Assembly: GCA_023954745.1 (NCBI GenBank)
Contig: JAGSHC010000005.1
Span: 4,550 to 68,549 of the forward strand
Direction of reading: 5' to 3'
Length of the DNA stretch: 64,000 bases
Source of the DNA: Deltaproteobacteria bacterium
Lineage (GTDB): Bacteria > Myxococcota_A > UBA796 > UBA9615
Shown here piece after piece: positions 15,408-55,748 of the stretch (position 1 is its first letter; each line of letters opens with the position of its first letter). A program made the position numbers and the translations under genes. A model generated the notes under the pieces. The model saw nothing but the letters and a program-made list of their open reading frames with translations, had not been told where the DNA came from and did no database searches.

Positions 15408-15483
15408 GGGGGATTAGCTCAGCTGGGAGAGCGCAGCGTTCGCAACGCTGAGGTCAGGGGTTCGATCCCCCTATCCTCCACCA
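15408..15483 (+). tRNA. tRNA-Ala (anticodon CGC)
   Basis: I folded the cloverleaf by hand. The acceptor stem GGGGGAT/ATCCTCC has a G3:U70 pair, which is the alanine identity element. The D-arm is GCTC/GAGC, the anticodon loop is TTCGCAA, the T-loop is TTCGATC, and the 3' CCA is encoded. Confidence 0.9.
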
Positions 15484-27158: not shown

Positions 27159-28319
27159 TCAGGCCTCTTCGCTGGTCTTCGAGGCGCGCCGGCGATCCCG
27201 CTCGGCACGACGCGCGCGGGCCGCATCGAGCATCTCCTTGGGGAAGCGCAGCCCCGCGAGCTTGATCTGCTCGGCGAAGGACGGCAGACGGCCCGTCGGC
27301 TCCAGGCGTCCCAGGATCTTGCCGTCCTCGTCCTTGCCCTCGGCCTTGAACGTGAAGAGGTCTCGCACCTGGTACTGACCGTCCGCGAGCTCCAAAACCT
27401 CGGTGATGTGGGTGATCTTCCGGCTGCCGTCGTGGAAGCGGGCCTGCTGCACGACCACGTCGAGAGCCATGGCGATCTGACTTCGCAGCGCCCACAGGGG
27501 CAACTCCACGTCGCCCATGAGGCACAGCGTCTCGAGCCGGGACAGCGTCTCCATGGGCGTCGACGCGTGAGTCGTGGACATGGACCCCTTGTGGCCCGAG
27601 ACCATGGCCTGGATCATGTCCAGCGCCTCGCCGGAGCGGACCTCGCCGATGACCACCCGGTCGGGGCGCATCCGCATCGCTGAGCGGAAGAGGTTGCGAA
27701 TCGTGACGGCCCCCCTGCCCTGGCGGTCCGGCGGCCGAGACTCGTAGTAGAGGAGGTGCGGCTTCTGGAGCTGGAGCTCCGTGCTGTCCTCGATGACGAT
27801 GATTCGCTGGTCGTCGGGGATGAACGAGCTCATCACGTTCAGAAGGGAGGTCTTCCCCGAGCCTGTTCCTCCCGCGATGACGATGTTGCACTCGATCTTC
27901 ACGGCGGCGTCGAGGAACTCGGCCGCGGCGGGGGTCATGGACCCGAAGCCCAGCAGCTTCTCTACCGTCAGTGCTTCCCGGAAGAACTTGCGGATGGCGA
28001 TGCAGATGCCCTTGCGGGCGACGGGCGGCATCGTGATGTGCACGCGGCTGCCGTTGGGCAGGCGGGCGTCCAGCAAGGGGCTCTCCCAATCGATCACCCG
28101 CCCGACGTACTGGGCGATGTTCTTCGCGAGAGCAAACACGTGGTCCTCGTGGGCGAACTTCGCGTCCGTCAACTCGAGCTTCCCGCCCCGCTCCACAAAG
28201 ACCTCTTCGGGACCGTTGATGAGGATCTCAGAGACGGAGTTGTCGTCGAGGTGGTGCTGGATGGGCACGAGGTACAGCGCGAGAGTCTGCTCGAAGACGC
28301 TCTCGAGAGTGGCGGTCAT
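27159..28319 (-). CDS. CpaF/TadA-family secretion ATPase, minimal form without an N-terminal regulatory domain
   Basis: Walker A GGTGSGKTS, Asp box, Walker B RIIVIEDSTEL, and a His box GHKGSMSTTHA of the VirB11/CpaF family. Confidence 0.85.
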   Translation of the reverse strand: MTATLESVFEQTLALYLVPIQHHLDDNSVSEILINGPEEVFVERGGKLELTDAKFAHEDHVFALAKNIAQYVGRVIDWESPLLDARLPNGSRVHITMPPVARKGICIAIRKFFREALTVEKLLGFGSMTPAAAEFLDAAVKIECNIVIAGGTGSGKTSLLNVMSSFIPDDQRIIVIEDSTELQLQKPHLLYYESRPPDRQGRGAVTIRNLFRSAMRMRPDRVVIGEVRSGEALDMIQAMVSGHKGSMSTTHASTPMETLSRLETLCLMGDVELPLWALRSQIAMALDVVVQQARFHDGSRKITHITEVLELADGQYQVRDLFTFKAEGKDEDGKILGRLEPTGRLPSFAEQIKLAGLRFPKEMLDAARARRAERDRRRASKTSEEA

Positions 28320-38965: not shown

Positions 38966-39929
38966 CCTCGAGGGGCAGGACGGCGTGGGCTCTAATCTCG
39001 GTGTACTGACCGGGAAGGTTCAAGCTGAAGAACGGCGGCAGCGACAGGAGTGACCAGTCGTCGCCGATGAAGCGGTTGACGAGCGGAATCGCCAGGTAGA
39101 AGCGGTGGCTCACGATGACGCCCACGTCGCTCTCCGTGGGCCAATCCCAGGTGGCGGTGCCGGAGACCTCGGTGCCCCCGCTCTCATCCGCCTTGTAGAG
39201 GGCGGCGCTCGTGGCGAAGGTGGAGTAGGCGTAGCGCTGCAGTGCGCTGTCTACGTACTCACCGGCGATGCCGAGGCCGCTCATCATCTGGCTGAAGGTC
39301 GAGAAGGCCGAGCTGATGATGTCGCCCACGAAGGGCAGGCCGTCGAGCACCACGCTCGCTCGGGGCGAGATGGGCACGCAGGCCATGGCGGCGGCCTGGT
39401 TCACCTTGTCGTACTTGTCACCGCCGTCGACGTTGATGCTGTGCTTCGGCTCTCCGCCCACTTCGCTGGGGATGTAGACGATGGCGGCGCGCGCGGCGGA
39501 GAAGGCGGCGTAGGTGACGACGTTCTTCGCCTGGTACATGAGCGCGAGCTGCATGAGGATGAGCGTCGTGATGAGCACGATGGGGAAGCTGATGGCGAAC
39601 TCGGTCATCGCCTGACCGCGGGTCCCCAGGGAGAGGCTGCGCCGTGCCCGGGCGCTCAGGAAGAAGCCCGCCGTCGCCTTCGCGAGGACCCAGGCCATCT
39701 TCCCGCCTGCGACGAGCGCGGCGGCGGCCATGAGGCCGAAGAGCATGATGTCGGCGTTGTAGAGGGGCTGCACCAGAGGCGTCGCGGCGTCGTAGGCTGT
39801 GGCCATGCCGCTCCCGAGGAGCGCGACGCTCTCCCGGCCCCAGGTGGTGCCGCCGGACCAGCTCGCGAGACCCAAGGAGAGGGCGGCGAAGCCAGTGGCC
39901 GACAGGGCGATGCGTGTGTGAGGAGTCAT
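38922..39929 (-). CDS. TadE/TadF-like pseudopilin with an N-terminal extension
   Basis: GQAMTEFAISFPIVLITTLILMQ motif. The start is ambiguous: ATG at 39929 (MTPHTRI, with two extra TMs) or ATG at 39698 (MAWVLAK, the canonical length). Confidence 0.5.
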   Translation of the reverse strand: MTPHTRIALSATGFAALSLGLASWSGGTTWGRESVALLGSGMATAYDAATPLVQPLYNADIMLFGLMAAAALVAGGKMAWVLAKATAGFFLSARARRSLSLGTRGQAMTEFAISFPIVLITTLILMQLALMYQAKNVVTYAAFSAARAAIVYIPSEVGGEPKHSINVDGGDKYDKVNQAAAMACVPISPRASVVLDGLPFVGDIISSAFSTFSQMMSGLGIAGEYVDSALQRYAYSTFATSAALYKADESGGTEVSGTATWDWPTESDVGVIVSHRFYLAIPLVNRFIGDDWSLLSLPPFFSLNLPGQYTEIRAHAVLPLEGETGDPPISGFWDM

Positions 39930-39943
39930 CTCTGCGCTCCGTC

Positions 39944-40495
39944 TCAGAAGTCCAGCCCGAGGAACGAACCGACGCCGAGCTGGATCTCGACGAGGGCCCA
40001 CGCCCAGCCGCCCACGATGGCGACTCCAAGCGGGAAGGCATCACTGTTCTGCTCGTCGAGCTCTTCGGGCTCGAGGAACGGAACCAGCGACGTGAAGATG
40101 TATCGCCACATGTTCTTGAGGGACCGCAGCAGCTTGCCCTTCCAGATCATGATTCCGAGGGCCATGACGCCCGAGAGCAGCCCCATGTAGAGGAGCCCCA
40201 GGATGGTGGCGTGCAGTCCGGTGAGGGCACCGAGCCCGGCGGCGAGCTTGACGTCCCCTCCCCCGATGCCGCCGAACATCATTCCCAGGAAGAGGATGAG
40301 GAATCCGAGGCCGAAGCCCTGGAGCGAGGAGACGAAGCCGCCGAGTCCGCCGGTGGCGAACCCGAGAGCGAGACCGAGCAGGATGGCGGGGTACGTGAGC
40401 GCGTTGGGGATGCGGCCTTGCTTCACGTCGGAGTACAAGGCTCCGGCCATGACGGCTGCACTCGCGGTCATCGTCACCATCTGCATCGTCTCCAT
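39944..40495 (-). CDS. Prepilin peptidase CpaA/TadV (A24 family)
   Basis: A polytopic protein with GGGDVKL and a second catalytic Asp region, positioned next to the pilin genes. Confidence 0.8.
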   Translation of the reverse strand: METMQMVTMTASAAVMAGALYSDVKQGRIPNALTYPAILLGLALGFATGGLGGFVSSLQGFGLGFLILFLGMMFGGIGGGDVKLAAGLGALTGLHATILGLLYMGLLSGVMALGIMIWKGKLLRSLKNMWRYIFTSLVPFLEPEELDEQNSDAFPLGVAIVGGWAWALVEIQLGVGSFLGLDF

Positions 40496-40627
40496 GGTTG
40501 AGGGTGGTTCCTGTCGAGCGTCGGGTCAGGCCTGGAGCGGTGACCCGCGTTCCTGCGGAGGAGAGGCGTCAGCCTCAAGAGGGGGAATCGGTTTCCTGGC
40601 GGGCGAGGTCAAGGAGCCGCAAGGGAC

Positions 40628-40643
40628 GCGTATTTCAATACGC
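40628..40643. promoter_or_regulatory. 16-bp palindrome GCGTATTtcAATACGC, 3' of the flp1 pilin gene and 5' of the prepilin peptidase gene
   Basis: A perfect inverted repeat read from the sequence. It is AT-rich for this genome and looks like a candidate operator. Confidence 0.3.
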
Positions 40644-40684
40644 AACCGAGCGAGCGACGCCGACATCGCCCGCCAGGGAGCCGA

Positions 40685-40903
40685 TTACAGGTTGGAGTCG
40701 ACGTTGTCGATCTCTCCGTCGGCCGTCTCGAACAGGCCCTTGATCTTGCCGCCGAAGGACACGGCGATGGCGATGCAGACCACGGCGATGGCGACGAGGA
40801 TGATGACGTACTCGGTCATGCCCTGGCCGCGCTCGTCGCTGTGGAGGCGGGCGAAGGCGTTCTTGGCGGAGTCGGCGACGATGGCGAGGTTGCGAGCGAT
40901 CAT
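40685..40903 (-). CDS. Flp-family type IVb pilin
   Basis: Leader ...HSDERGQG followed by MTEYVIILVAIAVVCIAIAV (the Flp motif, G then xxxxEY, and a hydrophobic helix); 72 aa. Confidence 0.75.
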   Translation of the reverse strand: MIARNLAIVADSAKNAFARLHSDERGQGMTEYVIILVAIAVVCIAIAVSFGGKIKGLFETADGEIDNVDSNL

Positions 40904-40973
40904 TTGGGTGTCTCCTTGAGGTCGGTGGCGTTCATGTAGGGAGCGCGGCTCCCCCGGTTGTTGGTTTCGAGGA

Positions 40974-41159
40974 CTAGGGAATGGGGAGGCTGATCCACGT
41001 GGCGGCGAACGCGTAGTAACGCTCGAAGGCCTCCTGCAGCGCGCCCATCACGGGGATGAGGCCGATGAAGACGGCCACGACGAGCACGATGTACTCGGTC
41101 ATTGCCTGTCCTCGCATGGAGGAGGTGCGGGTCGTTGAGGGAGCGCGAAGCAGCTGCAT
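40974..41159 (-). CDS. Flp-family type IVb pilin (second copy)
   Basis: ...SSMRGQA followed by MTEYIVLVVAVFIGLIPVMG. The start was chosen at the ATG MQLLRAP. A longer in-frame start at 41216 is possible. Confidence 0.7.
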   Translation of the reverse strand: MQLLRAPSTTRTSSMRGQAMTEYIVLVVAVFIGLIPVMGALQEAFERYYAFAATWISLPIP

Positions 41160-41216
41160 GGTCGAGGCTTCTCCCGCTCGATGCCTCGCGTTCAATCGTC
41201 GCGGCGGTCCGAGCAA

Positions 41217-41307
41217 GGGAAAGCTACCGGGGGGTTCGCGAGGGCGTCAACAAAATCACGCGAAACCCTTTGCATTTCGTTGACAAGTCGTTTGACAACA
41301 GAGGTAT
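41217..41307. promoter_or_regulatory. AT-rich putative promoter/leader region upstream of the flp2 pilin gene
   Basis: ~45% GC versus ~70% in the flanks. On the opposite strand it contains tandem TTGACA hexamers (TTGACAagtcgTTTGACA). I found no convincing sigma54 -24/-12 element. Confidence 0.3.
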
Positions 41308-41742
41308 CTAGCTGAAAAACCACAACAAAATTGCAAACACCAGCGAGGTAACAAGAAAGGCCCAAGGGAGAAGACTGCTTCCGGCGCCGCCCGACGGGAC
41401 GGTTCCGAGGTCGAGTTGGTCCCCCGGCTCGGTCTGGCTCTGTGCGATTACTCCCACGGGCAACTCAATCGCCCGCTGAGCCCGCAAGTAGAGGCGGGTG
41501 AAGCCCAGGGGCTTGAGGTTCGTGATGGCCCGAAGGACGAGCCCGTCCCGGTCGACGAAGATCACGTCCAGCGCGAAGCGCATCCCGAACATGTGCACGG
41601 AGTTGCACGGCGAGATGATGAGGGCCTCGCCGGGCTCCAGCCCGTCCGAGTCGAGCAAGCCCCGCGCGCGGTCGGCGCCCGTCACCGCCCAGCGTTCCCG
41701 GTCGGCCAGCACCGTCCCGCGCGTGACGTTGCGGATGCTCAC
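41308..41742 (-). CDS. DUF192 (COG1430) domain protein with a C-terminal TM
   Basis: The core GEALIISPCNSVHMFGMRFALDVIFVDRDGLVL is typical of DUF192, which often accompanies Tad loci. I chose a GTG start at 41742. The longer ORF has a junk-like N-terminus. Confidence 0.5.
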   Translation of the reverse strand: MSIRNVTRGTVLADRERWAVTGADRARGLLDSDGLEPGEALIISPCNSVHMFGMRFALDVIFVDRDGLVLRAITNLKPLGFTRLYLRAQRAIELPVGVIAQSQTEPGDQLDLGTVPSGGAGSSLLPWAFLVTSLVFAILLWFFS

Positions 41743-41746
41743 TGGA

Positions 41747-42853
41747 TCAGGAGGGGGGGAGCGTAAACAGCCACACCCGACGCCAGGCTTGAGCCTCCGA
41801 GCCCCGCATGCCCTGGGACACAAACGCGACGGTGACTCGCCCCTCGCCGTCCTTGCCGACGTTGGGCTCGGAGTTGTTGACTGTGCCGGTCTGCAACGCG
41901 CGGGAGAGCTTGCTCGCAACGTCCACGATCATCAGGGGGTCCCCCGCGTTCGGGTCGTCCTTGACGGTGACGATGGAGCGCGAGTCCGGCGTCCACGCCG
42001 GACCGCGGCGCTCGTTGGGGATGACGTCCTCGAGGAGCTTCTGGGGGATTCCATCACCACTGGCGGCCGCCACGTAGAGGTCGAAGTGGGTGCGGTCCTC
42101 CTTGTGGTGATTGCTGTAGAAGGCGATCCGGCGGCCGTCGGGAGACCAGGACGGCTTAAGCTGCGTGGCCTTCCAGGCCGTGAGGGCCCGTGCCGTGGGC
42201 GACGCTGCGCTCACGTCATCGATGACGTGGATGTTGGCCCCATCCTCGTTGAGCGAGGAGTACGCCAGCGCGCTGCGGTTGGGCGCGAAGTCGGCGTAGA
42301 ACTCCAGGCCAGGGTCTGCCGTGAGGCGCCTCGGCGGCGCTTCGAGCTCGAAGATGTCGATGAGGTAGAGGTCCCCTTCCCCGGTGCGGGCCGAACTGAA
42401 CGCGAGGTAGCGCGAGTCGGAGGAAAAGACGGCGCCGCCCTCCTTCTCTTCGCTGCCGATGGGGGTGGTGACCCCCTTGATGTACAGGTCGAACTCGTCG
42501 TCGGCCCCGGAGCTGGCGAAGGCGTAGAGCCCACCTCGACTCGCCCACGAGAACTCGTGGTTTACCTGCTTGCGCTCCAGGAAACGGCCTCCGAGACCCG
42601 AGCTCCCTGACGGCGGGAGGACCTCCTCTTCCCGACCCGTGCGCGCCTCCACCATGAACAGCGACGTGACCTTCTCCCGGGGAAAGGTCACCTCATAGGC
42701 CACCTGGGCACCGTCGGGGGACCAGCGGGGATTGAGCGCGTTGCCCTCACGATCCGGAGAGAGCGGTGTCGCGGTCTGGCCTGCCACCGCGCCGGGGACG
42801 GGCAGCAGCAGCAGCGCAGAGAGCGACATCCAACCAAACAGCTTGCTCATCAT
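41747..42853 (-). CDS. Periplasmic TolB-like (PD40/WD40-like) beta-propeller protein
   Basis: Signal peptide MMSKLFGWMSLSALLLLPVPGAVAG and repeated WSPDG..(I/V)A(F/Y) blades. The start overlaps the stop of the upstream ABC ATPase gene. Confidence 0.6.
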   Translation of the reverse strand: MMSKLFGWMSLSALLLLPVPGAVAGQTATPLSPDREGNALNPRWSPDGAQVAYEVTFPREKVTSLFMVEARTGREEEVLPPSGSSGLGGRFLERKQVNHEFSWASRGGLYAFASSGADDEFDLYIKGVTTPIGSEEKEGGAVFSSDSRYLAFSSARTGEGDLYLIDIFELEAPPRRLTADPGLEFYADFAPNRSALAYSSLNEDGANIHVIDDVSAASPTARALTAWKATQLKPSWSPDGRRIAFYSNHHKEDRTHFDLYVAAASGDGIPQKLLEDVIPNERRGPAWTPDSRSIVTVKDDPNAGDPLMIVDVASKLSRALQTGTVNNSEPNVGKDGEGRVTVAFVSQGMRGSEAQAWRRVWLFTLPPS

Positions 42854-43821
42854 TCCTCCGAGGACACCGCGGTCCGTGCCCAGCACGCCACCCGATGCCC
42901 CACTCCGATGGGGGTCAGCTCCGGCTCGGTGGTCCGGCACCGCTCCCAGAGCGCATGGCCGGGCTCCACCTCGTGGCAGGAGCCGCGGTAGCGGCAACCT
43001 TCCGCTTCGTCGGTCCGGTCCGGAACCATGATCGCACGACTTCCGGGCGCAAGCGACGTGGAGAGGAGGCGCTCCGTGTACGGATGCCTCTTCCCGGGGT
43101 GCACGCTCGTATCCAGCTGCCTCGAGGGCATCTCTTCCACCACCTTGCCGCGATTCATCACCAACACACGGTCAGACACATATCGGACGACATCCAGCTC
43201 ATGGGAGATGAAGATCCACGCCTGTCCGGGCCGCCGAGCCTCCAGCATCACCTTGAGAACGTCAGCCTTCACGGACGCGTCGAGGCCCGCCGTCGGCTCG
43301 TCTGCGATGACGATGCGCGGCTCGGGAAGCAAGCACCGGGCAACGCCCACCCGCCGTCGCTCTCCGCCAGACAGCTCCCTCGGTCGCCGGTCCGCCCGGC
43401 CTTCGAGCCGGAAGCGAGCGAGAGTCTCGGCGATGATCGTGTCTTCGTTCCCCTTCTGGTCGGGGCGGTGGAGTCGCAAGGTCTCCCGGAGGTGTTCGCT
43501 GACGGTCATGCCGGGGTTCAGGGCGGCAGCCGCCGACTGGTAGATCATCTGGGCGCGGGTGCGGGCAAGGCGGAGCTGGCGCGCGTCCAGGGCGCCAAAG
43601 TCCTCGCCGAGGAACTCGATGGCCCCACCGTCGGGCTCGATGATGCGAAGCAGCAGCTTCCCGAGGGTGGTCTTGCCGGAGCCGGACTCCCCCACCAGCC
43701 CGAGGACCTCGCCCGAATGAAGCGTGAGGTCCACCCCATCGACCGCGCGAAGCCCTGGCGCGCCGTCGCTTCCAGCGAAGGTCTTGTGCAGACCGGTGGC
43801 GCAGAGCGCGATCTCTCTCAT
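42850..43821 (-). CDS. Oligo/dipeptide ABC transporter ATP-binding protein (DppF/OppF-like)
   Basis: GESGSGKTT, LSGGERRRV and a C-terminal oligopeptide-transporter extension with Cys residues. Confidence 0.8.
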   Translation of the reverse strand: MREIALCATGLHKTFAGSDGAPGLRAVDGVDLTLHSGEVLGLVGESGSGKTTLGKLLLRIIEPDGGAIEFLGEDFGALDARQLRLARTRAQMIYQSAAAALNPGMTVSEHLRETLRLHRPDQKGNEDTIIAETLARFRLEGRADRRPRELSGGERRRVGVARCLLPEPRIVIADEPTAGLDASVKADVLKVMLEARRPGQAWIFISHELDVVRYVSDRVLVMNRGKVVEEMPSRQLDTSVHPGKRHPYTERLLSTSLAPGSRAIMVPDRTDEAEGCRYRGSCHEVEPGHALWERCRTTEPELTPIGVGHRVACWARTAVSSEE

Positions 43822-44834
43822 CGGCGACTCAGGAAGCAGGCGACGCGATGTCCATCACCAAAGGGCACGAGCGGCGGGACCTCGCTGTAGCAGCGCTCCT
43901 GGTCGTGTTCGCGACCCACGGCCATGCGAGCGCAGCGCTTTACGTAAGGGCACGACGCGCCTGCGGGCCCGCTCGGGGCACGAAGAGAGGGAGGGGGCGG
44001 ACGCCCCTCCTCCAGCGCGAGGACCCGTGCCTGCAGCTCCCGCGAGTAGGGGTGCTCGCCCGGGCCTGGCTCGAAGAACGCGCTGCGGGGCCCGTCCTCC
44101 ACGAGCCGACCCTGATAGAGAACCAGGACCCGGTCCGCCATGTGTCGGACGACGGCGAAGTCGTGGGTGATCAGGAGGAGAGTGAGGCCCTGTTCGTCCT
44201 GGAGGCGAGCCAGCAGGTCCAGCACTTCGCGGCGGACGGACCAGTCGAGTCCAGTAGTTGGTTCGTCCGCCACCAGGAAGCGCGGTTCCGTCGCGAGGGC
44301 GACCGCCACGGCGACCCGTTGGGCCATGCCCCCCGACAGCTCGTGTGGATGAAGCTCGGCGACGGCGCGGGGGTTGGGCAGGGCCACCTGGGCAAGCCAG
44401 TGCTCGGCGCGCTCCCGGCGCTCTGCCGTGCTGGCCCGCGGCCGGGCGACCCGCACCGAGTCAGCGACCTGGCGCCCCACGGTTTGGTACGGGTCGAGTG
44501 CCTCGAGAGGGTGCTGGAAGACGTAGCCGGCCCAGCCCGGGCGTACGGTTGTCAGCGAGCGCCGGCGTCCCGGACGTCGGGGCGCCAAGGCTGCCTCCCC
44601 CTCCTCGGTCCACGCCGTGGCGCGCCCTTGCATCACACCTGGCTTCGCTGAGGTGATGCCCAGCAGCGAGCGCATGAGCACGGTCTTTCCGCTCCCCGAC
44701 TCCCCCACCAGCGCGACGACCTCGCCTCGGCCGAGGGAAAACGACACGTCATCGACGACCACGACCTCCTGGCCGTCGAGAGGATCGGTCACCCCGACGC
44801 TGAGGTTCTCGACGCGGAGTAGAGGGGTGCTCAT
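43818..44834 (-). CDS. Oligo/dipeptide ABC transporter ATP-binding protein (DppD/OppD-like)
   Basis: GESGSGKTV, LSGGMAQRV, ADEPTTGLD. The start was set at the ATG MSTPLL, which gives an ATGA overlap with the permease gene. Confidence 0.8.
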   Translation of the reverse strand: MSTPLLRVENLSVGVTDPLDGQEVVVVDDVSFSLGRGEVVALVGESGSGKTVLMRSLLGITSAKPGVMQGRATAWTEEGEAALAPRRPGRRRSLTTVRPGWAGYVFQHPLEALDPYQTVGRQVADSVRVARPRASTAERRERAEHWLAQVALPNPRAVAELHPHELSGGMAQRVAVAVALATEPRFLVADEPTTGLDWSVRREVLDLLARLQDEQGLTLLLITHDFAVVRHMADRVLVLYQGRLVEDGPRSAFFEPGPGEHPYSRELQARVLALEEGRPPPPSLRAPSGPAGASCPYVKRCARMAVGREHDQERCYSEVPPLVPFGDGHRVACFLSRR

Positions 44835-45742
44835 CCTCGGGTCTCCGCGAAGTGGCGTGCCAAGGCCAGGAGCCCACCGATCGATACGACGATGGCGAGG
44901 GTGGGGGCGAGGAGCGCCAGGGCGGCGCCCTCGTTGATGGCCCGCTCCAGCCCAAGAGCGATGTCCCACGGGGCCCAGCTGTCGGGCCGGGCCAGAGACC
45001 GCACGTGAATCACCTGGCTGCGCACATCGGAGAGGATGTTCCCCCACGAGGGACGCGGCGGCGGCACACCGTAGTCGCCGAGGTAGGAGAGGGACGTCTC
45101 CACGAGGAGGAACGAGGCGAAGAGCAGGCAGCACTGGCGAAGGACGAGTTCACGGCAGTTGGCCCACAGGATATGCACGAAGAGAATCCGGTGGTCGGGC
45201 AGCCCATGGGCTCGCGCTGCCTCGACGAACTGTGCGCGCTGAAAGGTGAGGACCCGCTCCGAGAGCTCCTGGGCGAGTTGGGGCACAAAGGAGATCGCCA
45301 CCAACAGCGCCAGCACGTACAGCCTCAGGCCGGCCCACTCGGCAGGGTCGGAGACCGACACCATGAAGATCGCGACGACCACCACGACCAAGACCAGCCG
45401 GGGCCACGCCCCGACGATCGTGAGACCCAGGCGTGCCACGGCCGTGGCCTTGGCCCGAGGCCAGAATCCGATGGCAGCTCCGAGGGGGACCCCTACCAGG
45501 AGGGCCACGAGCACGGCGAACAGCCCCGGAACGGCAAAGGCTTCAGTGGATTCGATCATGCGCACCAACAGGTCTCGCCCGAGCTGATCGGTGCCGAGAA
45601 GGTGGGCTGAGGACGGGCCCAATAGCGGTGCGTCGGTCGGCTCGGCGGGGTCCACGTGCACGAAGAGCGCGAGCAGGCGCACCCCGACCAGGATGGACAC
45701 GACGATGGCGCCCAGGACTGCGCTCAGGGAGCGAAGCCTCAT
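44831..45742 (-). CDS. ABC peptide transporter permease (DppC/OppC-like)
   Basis: A six-TM BPD_transp_1-type permease. It overlaps its neighbours by 4 nt. Confidence 0.75.
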   Translation of the reverse strand: MRLRSLSAVLGAIVVSILVGVRLLALFVHVDPAEPTDAPLLGPSSAHLLGTDQLGRDLLVRMIESTEAFAVPGLFAVLVALLVGVPLGAAIGFWPRAKATAVARLGLTIVGAWPRLVLVVVVVAIFMVSVSDPAEWAGLRLYVLALLVAISFVPQLAQELSERVLTFQRAQFVEAARAHGLPDHRILFVHILWANCRELVLRQCCLLFASFLLVETSLSYLGDYGVPPPRPSWGNILSDVRSQVIHVRSLARPDSWAPWDIALGLERAINEGAALALLAPTLAIVVSIGGLLALARHFAETRG

Positions 45743-46608
45743 GCAACGCCCCGAGAGAGGTCCCGCCGGTCCTTGCGTACCCGAGGGTCGACCAGCACGC
45801 GCAGCACATCGACGCCCAGCGACGCCCCGGCGACGAGGGCGGTCACGAACACTGTGATCGCGACGAGTAGCGGCAAGTCCGCGGTGTCCGCCGCCCGGTA
45901 CCCGATGAGACCCAGCCCCTGGATCCCCAGGACCATCTCCAGCACGAGCACGCCTCCGATGAGCCAGGCGGTCCGCGAGGCCGCGATCTGGGCCACCGGG
46001 AGCGCCATGTGAGCGAGCACGTGCTTCCAGACCGACGTGCCCCGGAGCCGCGCTGACTGGATGAAGTCGCGCTCACGCAGCCGCCGGTACTCGGAGTCCA
46101 GTCCAAGGAGCACGTCCGACAGCATGCCGTCTCCCATGGCGAGGATGACCACAGCGGCGAAGCTCTGGCGTGGTCCCTCGGGCGGCACGGCAAAGAGCAC
46201 CAGGGCGAGATAGCCGAGCAGGAACACGGGACAAAGGGAGAGGGCGTGGAGCGCCCCTCGGAGCACCCGGCCAAGACGACCGAGCCGGTCACCGATGGCA
46301 AGGACGAGCACCGCGCCGCTGCCCAGAGACAAGATCAGGGCCATGGCGATGAGGGGCAAGGATCGCAGCGCCCCCCGCCAGACCATCTCGTGCACCGGGA
46401 CTCCCCGATACGAGCGTCCGAGGTCCCCGGTGAACACGCCGCGCCAGAAGGACACAAGCCAGTCGAGGAACGAGGCGTTGCCGGTTTCGGCGGCCTTCTC
46501 GGCTGCTCCGGGCACCGTCCAGAGCAGCCCGCCGAACACGACAGAGCTGACGAACACCACGAGGGCGAAGGAGAGCGCTCGACGACCGAGGAGTCGGAGC
46601 GCGGGCAT
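45739..46608 (-). CDS. ABC peptide transporter permease (DppB/OppB-like)
   Basis: Permease with a C-terminal ...VLVDPRVR. The start was set at the ATG MPALRLLGRR. The longer ORF has a junk-like R/G-rich N-terminus. Confidence 0.65.
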   Translation of the reverse strand: MPALRLLGRRALSFALVVFVSSVVFGGLLWTVPGAAEKAAETGNASFLDWLVSFWRGVFTGDLGRSYRGVPVHEMVWRGALRSLPLIAMALILSLGSGAVLVLAIGDRLGRLGRVLRGALHALSLCPVFLLGYLALVLFAVPPEGPRQSFAAVVILAMGDGMLSDVLLGLDSEYRRLRERDFIQSARLRGTSVWKHVLAHMALPVAQIAASRTAWLIGGVLVLEMVLGIQGLGLIGYRAADTADLPLLVAITVFVTALVAGASLGVDVLRVLVDPRVRKDRRDLSRGVA

Positions 46609-46628
46609 CGAACTGCCCAAGGCCGTGG

Positions 46629-48185
46629 CTACCGGCCTCCGACGGCCGTCATCGTCCAGTCCGGGAACTGGGAGAAGTAATAGAACGGCTGGATGAAGAC
46701 CGATTCCACTTCGCGGCGCAGCGCGGTGTAGGAGCGAAGGCTCCAGAGGAAGACGTAGGGCGACTCCTGGGCCAGCTGCCGATGCACTTCCTGCATGTAG
46801 ACGACCTTCGCGGCGGGGTCCGTCTCGGCGATGGCCTTCTCGAGGAGAGAGTCCACCTCCTTGTTCGCGAAGCCCACGAAGTTCTGGGTGCCGTCGCTGT
46901 GGAAGAGGTCGTAGATGTTCTCGTTCTTGTCGAAGGACCAGCTGTCGAGCACCAGGTCGAAGTCGCGCTCGCTGAAGACCTTCTCGTTCCACACCGCCTT
47001 GTCCATGGCGACGGGGTCGGACGCGTCCAGACCGAAGCGGCGGAGCTGCGCCTGCAGGTTGAGCGCCACCGTCTGGCCCTGATCGCCCATGCCGGCGCGG
47101 TAGAAGATGCGCAGCTTCAGAGCCTCGCCCTTCATCTTCCACTGGGACTCGCCCTCGCGCTCGTAGCCCGCCGTCTCCATCAGCTGGGTGGCCTCGGCGA
47201 CGTCGTGATCGACGAGCTTCACCGACTCGGCGTGGTTGTAGTACTTGCTGGACGGAACGAACGGACCCGAGATGCGGTAGCCCTCGCCGATCAGCGCCAG
47301 CGAGGCGTCGAAGTCCACGGCCCGCGCGATGGCAGCCCGCACGGGGTCCTCCTTCAGGGCCGAGTTCTTGAAGTTCATGCCGAGGTACCACCACGACTTG
47401 CTCTGGTAGGGGATCAAGTCCGCGTTTCGACTGCGCTCGACCTCGGCGAGGTACTGCGAGGGCACATTCACCATCGCCTGGATGTAGCCGTACCCCAGCG
47501 AACTGACCTGCTGGTTCTTGTCCGGCATCTCGCGGACCTTGACCTCAGAGACGGCCGGCTTGCGCATGGCCTCGTTGTTCGCCTGGAGCGACCAGGTCCC
47601 GAGGTCCTGGGCCTTGAGGGTGTACGGACCGGAGGTGGTGGGCTTGAACCAGAAGGGGTGGGTGCGCGGCACCGCCGGAGTCTCGAAGCGATGGGCCGGG
47701 AGGATCTTGAAGTAGAACTTCTCCAGGGGCTCGAACTCGGGATCGTGGAACGTCAGCTTGACCGTGGTCTTCGCAGTGGCTTCGGCCTTCTTGATGAAGG
47801 CGAGGCGCGAGCGGTCGGGGCTGTCGGTCTTCGGGTTCTGGTAGGCCTTGATGCTGAAGACGACGTCTTCGGCAGTGATCGGCAGTCCATCCGACCAGCG
47901 CAGGCCCTCCTTGATGAAGACCTGCATCTCCATCTTGTCCTGCGAGAGGTCGTAGGCGTCGGCAAGGCGCGGCTCGGGGTAGCCGTCGTAGCCCGGGCCC
48001 CAGAGCGACTCGAAGAGCAGCTCGTTCAAGCGCGTCTCCGCCATCGACAGCTCATGGAGCGGATTCAGCGAATACGCGAGCTCGTCCTCGGCGAACTCAA
48101 AGCCTTCCGCACCGGCGTGCCCGGACGCAGAGAGCATGAGCCCCGCGAGAGCGAGGACGGTGGCTGAACGAAACGTGATGCTCAT
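46629..48185 (-). CDS. ABC transporter substrate-binding protein, family 5 (peptide/nickel)
   Basis: Signal peptide MSITFRSATVLALAGLMLSASGHAGA and the SBP_bac_5 architecture (~518 aa). Confidence 0.75.
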   Translation of the reverse strand: MSITFRSATVLALAGLMLSASGHAGAEGFEFAEDELAYSLNPLHELSMAETRLNELLFESLWGPGYDGYPEPRLADAYDLSQDKMEMQVFIKEGLRWSDGLPITAEDVVFSIKAYQNPKTDSPDRSRLAFIKKAEATAKTTVKLTFHDPEFEPLEKFYFKILPAHRFETPAVPRTHPFWFKPTTSGPYTLKAQDLGTWSLQANNEAMRKPAVSEVKVREMPDKNQQVSSLGYGYIQAMVNVPSQYLAEVERSRNADLIPYQSKSWWYLGMNFKNSALKEDPVRAAIARAVDFDASLALIGEGYRISGPFVPSSKYYNHAESVKLVDHDVAEATQLMETAGYEREGESQWKMKGEALKLRIFYRAGMGDQGQTVALNLQAQLRRFGLDASDPVAMDKAVWNEKVFSERDFDLVLDSWSFDKNENIYDLFHSDGTQNFVGFANKEVDSLLEKAIAETDPAAKVVYMQEVHRQLAQESPYVFLWSLRSYTALRREVESVFIQPFYYFSQFPDWTMTAVGGR

Positions 48186-48267
48186 CCTCGTCAAATTCCC
48201 CGACCCAATGGTACGCAAAGTCGCTTCTCCGTGCTCGCGCGGCGCTGATTCTGCCAGTGCGCGACGT

Positions 48268-49797
48268 CTACTGCTGACTGGTCTTCCCCTGGACGCCAAT
48301 CCCGCTGGCCGCGTCCAGTTGGCCCAACTGGTAGGCGGCACCCGCAAGACCTGGGAACCGCTCGACCAGTGGATGGAGGTATTCCCGGCCCACGCCGGGG
48401 CGTCGTCCCGCGCTGTGCACGCCCCCCAGACGCACCAGAAACCCTGCGTCGTTTCGATGGGAGATTCGCGTCATGTCGTCCCCTGCCCCACTCGACGCCA
48501 CGTCGAGACTTCGTTCCCCCAGCCTCAAGGCCACGACGGGGGCGCCTGCGTCGGAGACCTCGATCATGCGTCGCCTGAGGAGTTGGTCAGCGAACCTTCG
48601 AGACAGCTCGAGGTCGCGTACGAGGCTCTTTCCGTCAGGCGAGCTGGCGAGCCCCTCGAGGCTCTGGCCCAGGCTTTGGTCGAGGCGAGCCTCGAAGCGC
48701 AGGACACGGTCGACGTCCGCGGGCGTGAGTCCCTCCGTGAGGCGCTCCGCGGGAACTGCCGCCGCAACGCGGGCGAGCAGCGAGGACCCCCCGGGGAGCC
48801 CCCAGCTCGCTCGGAGATCCGCGCCGTCGAGCCAGGCCCCCCCGAACCAGGTGAGGGCGGGTTCGACCGTTCCCTTCGCCGGGGTTGGTGGGGCGAGGGT
48901 CGGCGCGGCCTCACCCCAGGCATCGTGGGCGATGGAGACGAGCTCTTGCCCAGCTTCGCCAGCGGCCCCGGCATGGGTCAGGACGCTGAGGAGCTCCGCG
49001 CGCAGGCGGGCCCTCGAGACCTCCGGATCCCACCAGGAGATCGTGAACTCCAGCCCCGCTGCGGCGTCCTCGCCTAGAGGATCGACGTAATCGGGGCTGG
49101 CGGTGTCGAGGGTGCTGGAGGCCGGCTGTTCGCCAGCAGCGAGCGTCGCGCCGGCCGCCAGCCGTTCGGCCAGGGGGCTGGGAAGACCAGCCGGTGGGGC
49201 GGTCCCCGAGGAGCGGGCCTCGAGCAGCGCAAGGAGCGCCGTCCCCGGAGCTGGGTCGACTCCTTCCCCAGGCGTCCAGGCGCGGGCTCGTTTCAGCGAG
49301 GCTGAAGTCCCCTCCCCGTTGGGGGCAAGGGCTTGCAAGGACAGCGCTGCGAGGAGGGGCTCGTAGGCACCCACTCGAATGCGGTCCGCGCGCAAGGCGC
49401 GGTACTCGACCCCCTCGGGGACGATGCGCTCCTGCAGGTCCCGGGCGGCGACCAGGACGTCCGCGCGGGCGAGGGCGACGCGAGCCAGGCCGAGCTGCAC
49501 TGCGGGGTGGGTGGAGTCCGGGGACGCGAGGAACGCAGCCTCTGCCTGGGAGAGCTCGCCGCGGAACAGGGCCAGCCACCCTTCGCCGCCCGGTCCGTCA
49601 ATGAGGCCTGCGACTGCGTCGGGCTGGGATGGCACGGCGGCGTACCAGGTGCCTGCCACGACAGATGCGAGGGCGTCCCGGTCTTCGCTGGCCACGGCGG
49701 GCGGGGCGCCCTCGTCGGAGGGGCCACAGCCGGCGGTGACGAGACCGAGAGTAGCGAGGAGGAGTGCCGGTCCGCGCCTTGCGCGGAGCCGCGTCAA
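48268..49797 (-). CDS. Ala-rich hypothetical lipoprotein
   Basis: Lipobox LLLATLGLVTAGC. A ~500-aa A/L/G-rich helical protein with a 4-nt overlap with the kinase gene upstream. Confidence 0.45.
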   Translation of the reverse strand: MTRLRARRGPALLLATLGLVTAGCGPSDEGAPPAVASEDRDALASVVAGTWYAAVPSQPDAVAGLIDGPGGEGWLALFRGELSQAEAAFLASPDSTHPAVQLGLARVALARADVLVAARDLQERIVPEGVEYRALRADRIRVGAYEPLLAALSLQALAPNGEGTSASLKRARAWTPGEGVDPAPGTALLALLEARSSGTAPPAGLPSPLAERLAAGATLAAGEQPASSTLDTASPDYVDPLGEDAAAGLEFTISWWDPEVSRARLRAELLSVLTHAGAAGEAGQELVSIAHDAWGEAAPTLAPPTPAKGTVEPALTWFGGAWLDGADLRASWGLPGGSSLLARVAAAVPAERLTEGLTPADVDRVLRFEARLDQSLGQSLEGLASSPDGKSLVRDLELSRRFADQLLRRRMIEVSDAGAPVVALRLGERSLDVASSGAGDDMTRISHRNDAGFLVRLGGVHSAGRRPGVGREYLHPLVERFPGLAGAAYQLGQLDAASGIGVQGKTSQQ

Positions 49798-52700
49798 AGG
49801 GCTCCCTCGGACAGATCCTGGAGTGCAGCGATGGCGTCCTCGGCTCGGGTCGCCTCACGGGGCCGGTACGTGTTGTTGGCCATGTGGCGGTAGCGCTTCC
49901 ACACCGCGATCGCGTCGGACAGGTAGTCCAGGTTCTCGGTGCCCTGGTACAGGCCCTTGTAGGACTTGGCCTGGATCTCCCAGATCTTGAGCTGTCGGTC
50001 GGTCCGTGATCGCGCGGGGATGTCCTGCGCATGGAGTTCCGCGACCCGAGAGGTCTCCAGGGCGTCTTCGTAGCGCCCCTGGCGGAGGTGGCACTTGCTC
50101 ATCTCCAGGTTCCACTGCGGGTCTGCGTAGTTCCCGGGCTGTCCGAGCACCTCGCCGGCGAGGTCGCAGTGCTTTGCGCCATCGCCGGTCGCTTCGAACT
50201 GCGCGAGGAGCACGGCGCGGCTGTTCTCGTAGGAAGACGCCGAGGGGGCAATGGCTTCGAGCTGCTCGATGGCGTCTGCCTCGAGGCGGCCACGGCGCGC
50301 GGCGTCGCTGTAGTCGTCGATCACCTGCTGTGCGCTCGGCGCGTCGACCATGGCGACGGCGTCGTCGGAGGTCGCGCTGTCGCTCGATCCGGAGTCCTCG
50401 TCGCCGTAGGGGGAGCGCACGTCGCTCGAGGCAGTGTCCCAGTCATCGCTGGACGACGAGCCTGAGTCGCTGCTCGATGAGGCGGTGGCGTCGCTGCGGG
50501 GCGAGGAGCCACTGGAACGCGACGAACCCGACGAACCGCTAGACCCGGACGAACTCGACGAGCCACCGGTGTATCGAGGCTCTGCGGCGCGGGACGAGGA
50601 ACCAGAGTCCGAGCTCGCCGATCGGCTACTGCTCGATCCCGTGTCGCGCGAAGACGAACGCGACGTGGTGTCCCGGGCGGACGAACTCGAGCTTCGGGAG
50701 TCGGAGGCCCTTGCCGAGGAACTCGAACTGCGCGCGCTCGCCCCCCCTGTGTTCGACGTCGAAGACCGGCTGCTCGAGGCCGAGGCGCGCGAGTCCGAGG
50801 AGCGGCTGCCGGAGCTGCTCCGGTCGCTGGTGTTGGACCGCGACGACGCCACGGCCGCGGGGGTCGGGTCGGGGTCTCGCTCCGGCGTGGGCGCTGCGGC
50901 CTCGGCGTCAGAGCCGGCGTCGGCCACCGCGTCTCCGCTGTCGCCTGATGCCTCGGACTCCGAGGCGCCCTCGGCGCTGGCGGAGTCCTGGGCCTTTGCG
51001 TCGGCCTCTTCCGTGGATGCAGCATCCTGACCAGCGAGAGGCTCCGCGCCCGTCTCGAGATCACCCGTCGCGATGGCATCCCCACCCGGGTCACTGCCCG
51101 GGAGCATCAGCCACACGACCGCGCCGAGCAGCAAGACCACGACGGCCACGGCTACGTACACGGCCATGTTGCTGCCGCCCTCGTCCCAGTCGTCGTACCC
51201 GTCGTCGTACCCGTCGTCCGCTCCGTCCACGTCCATCATCACCGGTTCGGGCGAGCTGTTGGCGGCTCTAGCCACCGGAGCAGCCTGGACCGGTGCTGGC
51301 TTCGGCGGAGGCGGCGCAGCGGCAACGGGCGGCGGTGGCGGTGCCGCCACCGGCTTCGGCTTGATGGGAGGAGTCGGGACGCCCGCGGGAGGAATGGTGG
51401 GCTTGCTGGCGGCCATCGACGCGGTTGCGGCCACGTTCGCCCCAGCCGCCCCAGCCGCCCCAGCCGCCGCCGCAGCTGCGGCCTTCGCCTTGTCCCTCTT
51501 CTTCTGGCGACGTGATCGCTTGCCCTTCGGAGCCGGTGCCCCGGGATTCGTGGCCCGCGCAGCGGGGGACTGAGAGGCAGCTGCGAGCTCGGCCCGGGCC
51601 TGAAGTCCCGTCGCCGAGGGGGGGGCTGCCACGTCGTCGGAGACCGTCTTCGCCTGGGTCGGGGTGCGGGGAAGAGGCGGCTGAGGGGGAGCCGTGGGCG
51701 CGTTCCCCGGCTCCGTCTTCGCCATGTTGGTGAGAGAGACGGGTGGCGGCGGCGCTGCCTTCAGGTTCTTCTTGGACTCGGTGTCCTTGAGCACCAGGGC
51801 CTTCAGAGCCGCGACGGACTCCGCAAACGCGACCTCCTGTGCGGGCGTCTCCTCCACAGTGCTCGCCGGCTCGGGGGGCGCGGCGTCGGGAAGGTCAACA
51901 GGCTCGTCGGGCTCGTCGACGTTGGCCGTCGCGAGGTTTGTTCCCTCGGAGAGGCGCCCGGCGGCGTCCCGGGCGAGCTGCGTGATCTTCGCCATGTACT
52001 CGCGGAGGTGCGACGGCGAGAGGTCGACCTTCATCTGTTCCGCGACGAAGCGCAGGTCCTTGAGGACGAGGCCCATGCTCTGGTACCGAAGCTCGCGCTT
52101 CCGAGCGAGCATCCGCAGCAGAATCATCCGAAGTCCGGGCTCGATGCCCTTCTTGGTGATGTCCTTGAGCCCGACGTTGAGGTCCTTGATGGAGTTGATG
52201 ACCGTCAGGTAGTTGGTGCCATCGACCAGCTTCTCGAGCGTCAACATCTCCCAGAAGACGGCGCCGAGGCTGAAGATGTCGCTCGCGGGCGTGAGGTTCT
52301 GCTCTCCGCTCGCCTGCTCGGGCGACATGTAGTTGGCGGTGCCCTTGACCACCGAGCCGGTGTTGCTGGTGTCGCCCACGCGCGCAATACCGAAGTCCGT
52401 CAGCTTGACGATCCCGCGATTGCTGATGAGCACGTTGCTCGGCTTGATGTCCCGGTGGATGAGCCGGATCGGCTTGCCGTCCATGTCCGTCGCCGAGTGG
52501 GCGAAGTCCAGGGCTTCACAAAGAGACAGGGCGATGTGGAAGAAGATCGACAGCGGGAATCGGAGGTCGTGGTCCCGGTGCACCTGGATCGCCTGTGCAA
52601 CATCGATCCCGTCGATGTACTCCATGACGATGTAGTAGTCGTCGTCGATCCGGCGAAGGTCGTTTACTCGCACGATGTTGGTGTGCTGGAGCTGCCCGAG

Positions 52701-52898
52701 CAGCTTCGCCTCTTGGACCAACTGACGAATGAAGTACTGGTCGAGGGCGAAGCCGCCGTGAAGCCGCTTCAGGGCCACGAGGGTCTTGAAGTCCTCGTCG
52801 CCTTCACGCTCGGCGAGGAAGACTTCGGCCATCCCGCCCTCGCCGATCTTTCTCAGCAGGGTGAACTCGCCGCGCTTCTGAGGGAACGTCAACATCAC
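49794..52898 (-). CDS. Membrane Ser/Thr protein kinase with a P/A-rich linker, TM, long Ser-rich and TPR-like extracytoplasmic region (1034 aa)
   Basis: Hanks kinase motifs GEGGMAEVF, VALKRL, HRDIKPSNVL, DFGIA and SPEQ. The TM is MAVYVAVAVVVLLLGAVVWLMLPG. It has a >150-aa stretch of S/R/D/T simple sequence and a C-terminal helical repeat domain. Confidence 0.8.
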   Translation of the reverse strand: MMLTFPQKRGEFTLLRKIGEGGMAEVFLAEREGDEDFKTLVALKRLHGGFALDQYFIRQLVQEAKLLGQLQHTNIVRVNDLRRIDDDYYIVMEYIDGIDVAQAIQVHRDHDLRFPLSIFFHIALSLCEALDFAHSATDMDGKPIRLIHRDIKPSNVLISNRGIVKLTDFGIARVGDTSNTGSVVKGTANYMSPEQASGEQNLTPASDIFSLGAVFWEMLTLEKLVDGTNYLTVINSIKDLNVGLKDITKKGIEPGLRMILLRMLARKRELRYQSMGLVLKDLRFVAEQMKVDLSPSHLREYMAKITQLARDAAGRLSEGTNLATANVDEPDEPVDLPDAAPPEPASTVEETPAQEVAFAESVAALKALVLKDTESKKNLKAAPPPPVSLTNMAKTEPGNAPTAPPQPPLPRTPTQAKTVSDDVAAPPSATGLQARAELAAASQSPAARATNPGAPAPKGKRSRRQKKRDKAKAAAAAAAGAAGAAGANVAATASMAASKPTIPPAGVPTPPIKPKPVAAPPPPPVAAAPPPPKPAPVQAAPVARAANSSPEPVMMDVDGADDGYDDGYDDWDEGGSNMAVYVAVAVVVLLLGAVVWLMLPGSDPGGDAIATGDLETGAEPLAGQDAASTEEADAKAQDSASAEGASESEASGDSGDAVADAGSDAEAAAPTPERDPDPTPAAVASSRSNTSDRSSSGSRSSDSRASASSSRSSTSNTGGASARSSSSSARASDSRSSSSSARDTTSRSSSRDTGSSSSRSASSDSGSSSRAAEPRYTGGSSSSSGSSGSSGSSRSSGSSPRSDATASSSSDSGSSSSDDWDTASSDVRSPYGDEDSGSSDSATSDDAVAMVDAPSAQQVIDDYSDAARRGRLEADAIEQLEAIAPSASSYENSRAVLLAQFEATGDGAKHCDLAGEVLGQPGNYADPQWNLEMSKCHLRQGRYEDALETSRVAELHAQDIPARSRTDRQLKIWEIQAKSYKGLYQGTENLDYLSDAIAVWKRYRHMANNTYRPREATRAEDAIAALQDLSEGAL

Positions 52899-55132: not shown

Positions 55133-55642
55133 TTACTCGCCCTGGCGCAGAACGCCGGTCCCAGTGTTGGTCTCGCCCAGGCTCGTATCGACGAGATTGC
55201 CGACGTCCTCGACATCAATGGTGTCTGGGTAGAGCGTGGTGTCCACTTGGAGCGTCCCCCGGTCGTACAGGACCGCGTCCCGCCAGATGTGGTAGCCCGG
55301 CTTGTAGATGGTGACTTCGTAGTAGTACCCCGGCGGCATCCCCAGGTCGGTGCCCGCTTCATCAGACACGTGGTCGACGACCCAGCGGCCGCCCTCGGTG
55401 GTCACTGCGAGCCCCCGGGTGCCGTCAGGCAGGGTCTCCGTCGTGCCACGCCCGCGCTCCATACTTTCGTCTGGTGCTTGAGGAAGGATCGATATCTTCG
55501 CGAAAGGAATGGGCTTTCCCTCGGCGTCGAGCACGAGGCCGGACAGCATGTCTGGCTCCTTGCCCTTGCCCTTGCCGCCGCCCGTCGTCACACAGCCAGC
55601 GAGAAGCAACGCCGCCGCCACTGTGACGATGAGGGAGGACAT
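55133..55642 (-). CDS. Small lipoprotein with a carboxypeptidase-regulatory-like beta domain
   Basis: Lipobox AAALLLAGC, then GLVLDAEGKPIPFAKISI... The start was set at the internal ATG MSSLIV. Confidence 0.4.
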   Translation of the reverse strand: MSSLIVTVAAALLLAGCVTTGGGKGKGKEPDMLSGLVLDAEGKPIPFAKISILPQAPDESMERGRGTTETLPDGTRGLAVTTEGGRWVVDHVSDEAGTDLGMPPGYYYEVTIYKPGYHIWRDAVLYDRGTLQVDTTLYPDTIDVEDVGNLVDTSLGETNTGTGVLRQGE

Positions 55643-55748
55643 CGCTGCTTTGCGTCTGGTCACGTGGGTCTCCTTGCGCTGACGTCGATATAGCAAAGCC
55701 CGGGGGAGCGGTCGCTCCTACCCGGGCCGTGCGCACCGCGAGGGTGAA

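Follow-up and report, generated by a model that had tools for sequence, protein, structure and literature searches.

In Myxococcus xanthus, contact-dependent killing is carried out by Kil, a Tad-like apparatus (PMC8460266, PMC12075869). Kil is described with a single ATPase; this central ATPase bears an N-terminal FHA fusion, further FHA proteins are present, and the authors of that work proposed an FHA-based signaling cascade (PMC8460266). Among ATP-binding cassette (ABC) importers, those of the Opp/Dpp type (PepT; Escherichia coli DppABCDF and OppABCDF, Bacillus subtilis App, Mycobacterium tuberculosis OppABCD) share a five-component layout: a family-5 substrate-binding protein (SBP), two six-helix permeases with EAA motifs, and two ATPases with C-terminal extensions. 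Counterparts of both systems adjoin in the DNA studied here, a 64,000-nucleotide (nt) stretch of contig JAGSHC010000005.1 (the window; all positions are given within it) from a metagenome-assembled genome (MAG) of an uncultured organism. In its region 41308–48185, genes for an Opp/Dpp-like importer with that same layout, a secreted PD40 beta-propeller, and a DUF192 protein lead into the pilin genes of a Kil-like Tad locus. This region is probably a head-to-tail junction between two gene modules that evolved independently.

The first module would run from 55663 to 41747 and comprise the ABC importer and the PD40 propeller, preceded by a CarboxypepD_reg-like lipoprotein, one or two membrane-anchored Ser/Thr kinases, and a TPR-like lipoprotein. 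The second would be the Kil-like Tad pilus locus, with DUF192 among its accessory genes and with pilins that use their own promoter. The two modules would have become adjacent in the ancestor of one clade and would mostly have stayed so since.

The window has a G+C content of 64–72%, and a gene call based on G+C at third codon positions places nearly all genes between about 16.5 and 64 kb on the minus strand. On this strand, the SBP_bac_5 protein, two permeases, two ATPases, the PD40 propeller, DUF192, and two Flp pilins follow one another in that order. ATGA overlaps of 4 nt join permease 1 to permease 2, permease 2 to ATPase 1, ATPase 1 to ATPase 2, and ATPase 2 to the propeller gene; a gap of 20 nt separates the SBP gene from permease 1, a spacer of 4 nt the propeller from DUF192, and a gap of 148 nt with lower GC DUF192 from flp1. 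Public gene calls, made independently for a short contig of the same sequence, agree with those made here and, together with the Pfam matches and the overlaps, bear out the gene content and translational coupling first claimed for this region. Four further same-strand genes, with gaps of 82 nt or less, lie upstream of the SBP gene, and the conserved unit begins about 7.5 kb upstream of 48185 and stops at the propeller.

Two probable modules and their junction

The cassette was traced with a PD40 profile scan of one genome per species, which yielded 80 loci; high-GC MAGs supply nearly all of them, and most carry the label Myxococcota or Deltaproteobacteria. Neighborhoods with flanks of up to 10 kb were compared; the cassette was defined by mapping 25 window proteins onto the loci with tblastn and by clustering open reading frames (ORFs), where ORF calling was crude and the tblastn maps were independent of it. 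Across these species loci, the order is Ser/Thr kinase, (143-amino-acid (aa) lipoprotein), a member of the H509 family, SBP, two permeases, two ATPases, (416-aa protein), and PD40, and the propeller is linked to the importer in about 45–48 of the 80 (39 + 3 + 6 short). A locus counted as informative if three or more importer parts immediately preceded PD40 and the downstream sequence covered at least 3 kb. Only three of the 42 informative loci have tad genes downstream, and in the other 39 none is found within 3–10 kb downstream.

The order of the window (kinase, kinase, 509-aa protein, importer, PD40, DUF192, flp, tad) is kept where the PD40 homologues are 80%, 58%, and 54% identical. Conservation of the importer-PD40-DUF192-flp arrangement, which the original prediction had put forward as a check, is thus confirmed in relatives whose PD40 proteins are as little as about 54% identical. 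Loci at 39% and 33% read kinase, small lipoprotein, protein of about 460–500 aa, SBP, permeases, (ATPases), protein of about 400 aa, and PD40; they hold no DUF192 and no tad, and instead continue with unrelated genes, among them Usp/acetyltransferase, ArgRS, and DUF2058. More widely, the genes 3' of PD40 vary by lineage and include a transglycosylase with an M24 peptidase, large TIG/PKD-type secreted proteins, and opposite-strand kinases. In a neighbor-joining tree of PD40, the Tad-linked loci form a single clade, while their sister group and all other importer-linked lineages are without tad. One locus nested inside the Tad-linked clade (L012) keeps importer, PD40, and DUF192, followed by unrelated genes over the next 8 kb, and has lost the tad adjacency. 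The importer-propeller cassette is therefore self-contained and conserved independently of tad in many uncultured Myxococcota, and its placement beside Tad characterizes one lineage and does not count as evidence for a prey-feeding arm.

The DUF192 gene shows the opposite pattern of linkage. It encodes a 144-aa protein (41308–41742, minus strand; Pfam DUF192, PF02643, 58.7 bits against a cut-off of 27) of a short form without a signal peptide and with an extra hydrophobic C-terminal tail. An alignment of its subfamily shows the motif PCNSVHMFGM and invariant R25, G28, L29, H50, D59, V60, E93, and G97. Searched with this subfamily, metagenomes yielded 80 loci. Genes of the tad type are present in 43 of them, and in 31 of the 49 where the flank reaches at least 3 kb, on the same strand in 41 of the 43; DUF192 follows a TadA-type ATPase within 300 nt in 20 loci and TadC in eight. 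The claim that DUF192 is a recurrent Tad-associated gene is in this way upheld for the present subfamily. Conversely, outside the window's clade none of the 80 metagenomic loci has the importer-propeller cassette beside DUF192; apart from two short contigs of that clade, the only importer-type match is a lone ABC-ATPase about 4.8 kb from DUF192 (L167). A counter-example is one Actinobacteria-labeled MAG, in which DUF192 occurs without tad.

The association is not confined to Kil-like loci. In two other Myxococcota, DUF192 has a T2SSF gene on one side and a series of FHA/TPR genes on the other, a layout reminiscent of the end of Kil cluster 2 in M. xanthus. The FHA part was aligned in none of the 29 TadA-type ATPases that adjoin DUF192 in the metagenomes; because the linked ATPases lack this alignment, the link of DUF192 is with Tad loci in general and not with the Kil type only. 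Judged by its neighbors, DUF192 belongs evolutionarily to the Tad side. The match to solved structures of the DUF192/UPF0127 family (COG1430), such as PDB 3M7A, is weak (E 0.014), and the window's subfamily differs from other members in being short, devoid of a signal peptide, marked by PCNSVHMFGM, and embedded in tad operons. The loci in which this subfamily was noted are L092–L168, L170, and L174. In the searchable literature, no mention was found of DUF192, UPF0127, or COG1430 in connection with Tad.

The junction itself varies among members of the Tad-linked clade. In L009, and likewise on the short contig L089, the DUF192 gene between PD40 and flp1 has the opposite orientation; it is separated from flp1 by 0.7 kb in L011 and by 1.6 kb, with two extra ORFs, in L004/5. 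Co-transcription of importer and pilins is impossible in some relatives. Moreover, when the 300-nt stretches preceding flp1 in six loci were aligned, a promoter block belonging to flp1 itself emerged (41221–41285, minus strand). In the window, it consists of an operator-like element, TGTCAACGAAATGCAAAG (41285–41268), a −35 hexamer TTGACG (41250–41245), an 18-nt spacer, and a −10-like TAGCTT (41226–41221); the block common to the relatives is TGTCAA-GAAATGCAAAG, (G)TTGAC, 17–18 nt, and a TAGCTT-like hexamer. The core motifs (operator-like element, −35 TTGAC, −10-like TAG) are present in all six aligned loci regardless of the genes upstream. The operator-like 18-mer occurs once in the 64-kb window, with 0 occurrences expected by chance, and the motif is not present upstream of the importer or of the kinases. 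Because flp1 has its own conserved promoter block, co-transcription with the importer is unnecessary for pilin expression; because the spacer is only 4 nt, read-through from the first module into DUF192 is likely.

A consensus promoter scan of 39900–50000 found no promoters, and the flp promoter emerged only from the alignment of relatives. A terminator scan of the same interval gave two terminator-like sites, both inside genes and fewer than in shuffled sequence. A sigma-54 promoter upstream of flp1 was considered by eye and rejected, as its GG...GC spacing is off by 2. Rfam and tRNA scans of the window returned a single match, a tRNA-Ala at 15408–15483, distant from the region.

Composition of the cassette

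All genes of the cassette lie on the minus strand. The SBP (518 aa, 46629–48185) is a periplasmic family-5 protein with a Pfam SBP_bac_5 score of 179.6 bits against a cut-off of 32.4. Permease 1 is of the OppB/DppB type (289 aa, 45739–46608; BPD_transp_1, 49.4 bits) and permease 2 of the OppC/DppC type (303 aa, 44831–45742), which scores 26.1 bits with BPD_transp_1, just below the 26.4 cut-off, and 124.7 bits with an Opp4C-like NCBIfam model. Each has six hydrophobic segments and, as read off the translations, an EAA-type loop motif (RDFIQSARLRG and AQFVEAARAHG, respectively). ATPase 1 (OppD/DppD-like, 338 aa, 43818–44834; ABC_tran, 92.4 bits) and ATPase 2 (OppF/DppF-like, 323 aa, 42850–43821; ABC_tran, 108.4 bits) share the Walker A motif GESGSGKT and carry, respectively, the signatures LSGGM and LSGGE, the Walker B motifs FLVADE and IVIADE, and the H-loops ITHD and ISHE. 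All components of the importer are present, with intact catalytic motifs, and it is probably active. Its assignment to the divergent Opp/Dpp (PepT) importers, based on these family signatures, is firm. An exact-sequence look-up of ATPase 2 found no record.

The C-terminal tails of the two ATPases, of about 60–80 aa, are Cys-rich. The oligo_HPY extension is weakly matched in ATPase 2 (22.2 bits against a cut-off of 27.1) and not at all in ATPase 1. Each tail has four Cys residues (positions 295, 301, 315, and 333 in ATPase 1; 276, 282, 295, and 313 in ATPase 2), and their spacing is alike, CX5CX13CX17C and CX5CX12CX17C (encoded within 43818–44000 and 42850–43050). Such four-Cys tails would fit the Fe-S cluster domain described for some OppD/OppF proteins.

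With regard to the substrate, the best solved relatives of the SBP are Lmo0135, AppA, and other peptide binders, and nickel binders are also among its solved relatives. When the SBP family is aligned with DppA, OppA, and NikA of E. coli, all 40 of its members have an Asp in the column of DppA D408 and OppA D419, where NikA has Pro. From the crystal-structure literature, we take this residue to be the Asp that clamps the free N-terminus of the bound peptide. Peptide uptake is plausible because the SBP keeps this Asp, a trait shared with Opp/Dpp; in contrast, the carboxylate-binding Arg355 of DppA is not kept in the family. None of the importer parts reaches an NCBIfam equivalog cut-off (the SBP scores 94 bits against 650 for Opp4A), and for that reason we can only infer from its sequence that the importer takes up periplasmic peptides or some other ligand whose alpha-amino group is free. 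The SBP would capture periplasmic peptides and pass them to the permeases.

In contrast to the Opp/Dpp systems, the operon runs on, by translational coupling, into a secreted stand-alone PD40 beta-propeller, the final gene of the cassette (41747–42853, with a start at 42853 or 42850; 367–368 aa). The protein has a signal peptide and a Pfam PD40 score of 84 bits and, as its gene is coupled to that of ATPase 2, would be produced in a fixed ratio with the ATPases. Its AlphaFold2 model (predicted local distance difference test score 87.7) is all-beta past the signal peptide and has no N-terminal domain. The best sequence matches are TolB chains in the PDB (E about 1e-6, over partial stretches only), which are also the best Foldseek matches. 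The template modeling (TM) score of the model is 0.48 to TolB and 0.6–0.66 to the propellers of S9 peptidases and oligogalacturonate lyases, and the TolB equivalog TIGR02800 scores 84.4 bits against a cut-off of 343. Hence, the label "TolB-like" in the original prediction holds for the PD40 repeats and fails for identity with TolB, which was rejected for the missing N-terminal alpha/beta domain, the low structural similarity, and the sub-cut-off TIGR02800 score. The propeller shares its repeats and a periplasmic location with TolB of the Tol-Pal system, whereas its gene adjoins ABC ATPase 2 and DUF192 and not pal, tolA, tolQ, or tolR. The exact sequence that starts at the ATG at 42853 has no record, and the 367-aa version is recorded only on a 2.9-kb contig. 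No description of PD40 genes within ABC-importer operons was found in the searchable literature.

A further difference from Opp/Dpp lies upstream, where the importer is preceded by receptor kinases and a TPR-like lipoprotein. The first cassette gene (55133–55663) has an AAGGAG ribosome-binding site and a GTG start and encodes a CarboxypepD_reg-like lipoprotein of 176 aa with an LLLAGC lipobox; its Pfam CarboxypepD_reg score (26.1 bits) is under the cut-off, and the lipoprotein matches, with 29% identity (E 3e-12), the 143-aa family that recurs in 17 related loci. Next come Ser/Thr kinase 1 (737 aa, 52895–55108; Pkinase, 137.5 bits; transmembrane segment 664–701) and Ser/Thr kinase 2 (1034 aa, 49794–52898; Pkinase, 139.9 bits; transmembrane segment 573–605), whose genes overlap by 4 nt and which both have an extracytoplasmic C-terminal part. 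They would lend the cassette a signaling side. The last protein before the SBP, a core cassette member, is a 509-aa lipoprotein (48268–49797) without a Pfam match, predicted to form a TPR-like alpha-solenoid with generic structural matches only. It would serve, with the propeller, as a periplasmic scaffold or ligand-handling partner.

Several variants of the cassette were noted among the species loci. In 25 loci of a distant clade, a protein of about 416 aa without a Pfam match is encoded between the ATPases and PD40 (for example, at 8688–9938 in L030 and 8795–9997 in L008); its N-terminus is TPR-like, its last residues, ...NFSFAF, recall an outer-membrane beta-barrel, and it is absent from the window's clade. 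In about ten distant loci (L020, L024, L026, L030, L035, L043, L045, L064, and others), PD40 is followed by a Slt70-like lytic transglycosylase (SLT, 98 bits, plus TPR) and then by an M24 peptidase; an SLT gene is also near the cassette in L006. In two Fibrobacteria-labeled MAGs (L086 and L087), the gene for a PD40 protein with 28–29% identity immediately precedes family-5 importer genes in the same orientation; L086 has a full SBP-permease-permease-ATPase-ATPase set, and on the contig of L087, which is shorter, the SBP alone was detected. The pairing of propeller and importer, in another order, thus also exists outside Myxococcota. Finally, L043, L045, L050, L062, and several records labeled "uncultured Enterobacterales/Rickettsiales" carry the cassette on contigs of 66–74% GC, and the labels Klebsiella pneumoniae, Bifidobacterium breve, and Enterobacterales on high-GC cassette records are almost certainly wrong.

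The neighboring Tad locus

Downstream of DUF192, and on the same strand, are the genes of two pilins with the G/xxxxEY motif: Flp pilin 1 (61 aa, 40974–41159), which reads MQLLRAPSTTRTSSMRG/QAMTEY... and is 80–100% identical among the relatives in the clade, and Flp pilin 2 (72 aa, 40685–40903), which reads ...ERGQG/MTEY... and whose copies in relatives have a weak Pfam Flp_Fap match. Directly 3' of the flp2 stop codon is a long GC-rich hairpin without a U tract (40595–40677, minus strand). The predicted fold of 40496–40690 has −88 kcal/mol (z = −5.49), and none of 200 shuffled sequences was as stable. Long hairpins are common after major pilin genes, and this one may be an attenuator that sets the ratio of pilin to machinery expression.

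The Tad assembly genes extend from 40495 to about 27159 and begin with a CpaA/TadV-like prepilin peptidase (39944–40495, minus strand; Pfam Peptidase_A24, 61.9 bits). The set includes TadE/G-like proteins, RcpC, a secretin of 417 aa, a T2SSE ATPase of 625 aa fused to FHA (FHA, 57.8 bits; T2SSE, 203 bits), two T2SSF proteins, and an FHA protein of 527 aa; a second T2SSE ATPase is encoded at 27159–28319. With Kil, the locus shares the FHA-fused ATPase, the extra FHA protein, the short secretin, Flp-type pilins, and TadE/G-like minor pilins. It differs in being a single cluster with two T2SSE ATPases. A search of the two Kil papers with their supplements turned up no ABC transporter, oligopeptide uptake, PD40, TolB, or DUF192 (PMC8460266, PMC12075869); the published table of Kil genes likewise has no entry for an ABC importer, a PD40 protein, or DUF192 (PMC8460266).

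Two side observations concern genes at the edges of such loci. In M. xanthus, Kil cluster 1 starts, ahead of the prepilin peptidase, with MXAN_3102 and MXAN_3103, which have no assigned function and are annotated with beta-propeller-type domains, cytochrome cd1-like and YWTD (PMC8460266, Supplementary file 1). In the window, just past the Tad locus and beside RNase III, a 491-aa protein (23199–24674) has MopE-type metal-binding motifs and FG-GAP repeats.

Readings of the adjacency

Nothing links importer function to pilus function. Some points nevertheless weigh against a mere junction of independent modules. The adjacency persists across a fairly deep clade (PD40 52–80% identical, TadA 63–87% identical) despite rearrangements, and its retention could reflect selection for linkage. 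No terminator is predicted between DUF192 and flp1, and some read-through into the pilins may occur. The importer parts fall far under all NCBIfam equivalog cut-offs, which leaves the substrate without an assignment. The kinases encoded upstream could conceivably signal by phosphorylation to FHA domains, which both the Tad ATPase and the 527-aa protein carry. Within this one clade, a nutritional or kinase-to-FHA link is possible but unsupported.

One alternative, an unlikely one, is a clade-specific regulation in which the cassette would sense periplasmic peptides or envelope damage and the kinase output would be read by the Tad FHA domains, gating the firing of the pilus. The sensors would be the binding protein, the propeller, the TPR lipoprotein, and the receptor kinases, and the targets that the kinases phosphorylate would be recognized by FHA domains on two Tad-locus proteins, the ATPase and the protein of 527 aa, by analogy with the PpkA–Fha1 control of type VI secretion. 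This would agree with the two receptor-type kinases at the head of the cassette, with the FHA domains on TadA and on a second protein of the Tad locus, with the signaling cascade that the Kil authors proposed (PMC8460266), and with an adjacency retained throughout the clade. However, of the 39 cassette loci without tad, 28 also have a same-strand upstream kinase, and tblastn found no FHA gene within their flanks. The kinases therefore serve the cassette itself. If such wiring from kinase to FHA did exist, the firing of the pilus and the uptake of nutrients would be coordinated. A combined version, in which the cassette would be a device for both sensing and taking up periplasmic peptides, wired in this manner to the Kil-like Tad, while the cytoplasmic DUF192 would be a Tad accessory across several phyla, is improbable as a whole.

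It is also unlikely that the cassette serves envelope maintenance unrelated to the pilus. By analogy with MppA–OppBCDF, it would recycle murein peptides, and the propeller would act at the peptidoglycan or outer-membrane interface. The transglycosylase and M24 peptidase genes that follow PD40 in distant loci, with the SLT gene near the L006 cassette, would fit this role, as would the TolB propellers as nearest sequence relatives and the presence of the murein-peptide binder MppA among the solved relatives of the SBP. Yet the transglycosylase neighbor is limited to some subclades and absent from the window, the MppA match is weak (E 4e-9) beside those to generic peptide binders, and the cassette has no amidase or LD-carboxypeptidase.

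The original prediction, that importer and propeller form a prey-peptide uptake arm of a Kil-like killing Tad machine and are co-expressed with the pilus, has become improbable: it could draw on the shared strand, the tight spacing without a predicted terminator, the arrangement kept in the window's clade, the Kil hallmarks of the Tad locus (FHA-fused ATPase and short secretin; PMC8460266), and the peptide-type Asp of the binding protein, but 39 of the 42 informative species have the cassette beside varied neighbors such as ArgRS, DUF2058, and kinases and not beside tad, cassette and tad became neighbors in one clade only, inside which the link was lost once, the junction shows an inverted DUF192 or inserted genes, the pilins have a promoter whose motif does not recur upstream of importer or kinases, and the Kil papers (PMC8460266, PMC12075869) describe neither an ABC transporter nor oligopeptide uptake. 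What had been named beforehand as a refutation of this prediction, a transporter kept beside housekeeping genes and away from tad in all relatives, is largely borne out.

The reading of the region as a junction of two modules thus keeps its place as the probable one. A functional adjacency, which the evidence makes unlikely, would offer the first genetic access to the coupling between a contact-killing Tad system and nutrient capture. Both the kinase-importer-propeller cassette and the association between DUF192 and Tad appear to be undescribed in the searchable literature. The composition of the cassette suggests that, in uncultured Myxococcota, ABC import is coupled to eukaryote-like kinase signaling. 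The tad-embedded DUF192 subfamily, for its part, gives this domain a concrete cellular context and is a candidate new component for the biology of Tad/Flp pili.

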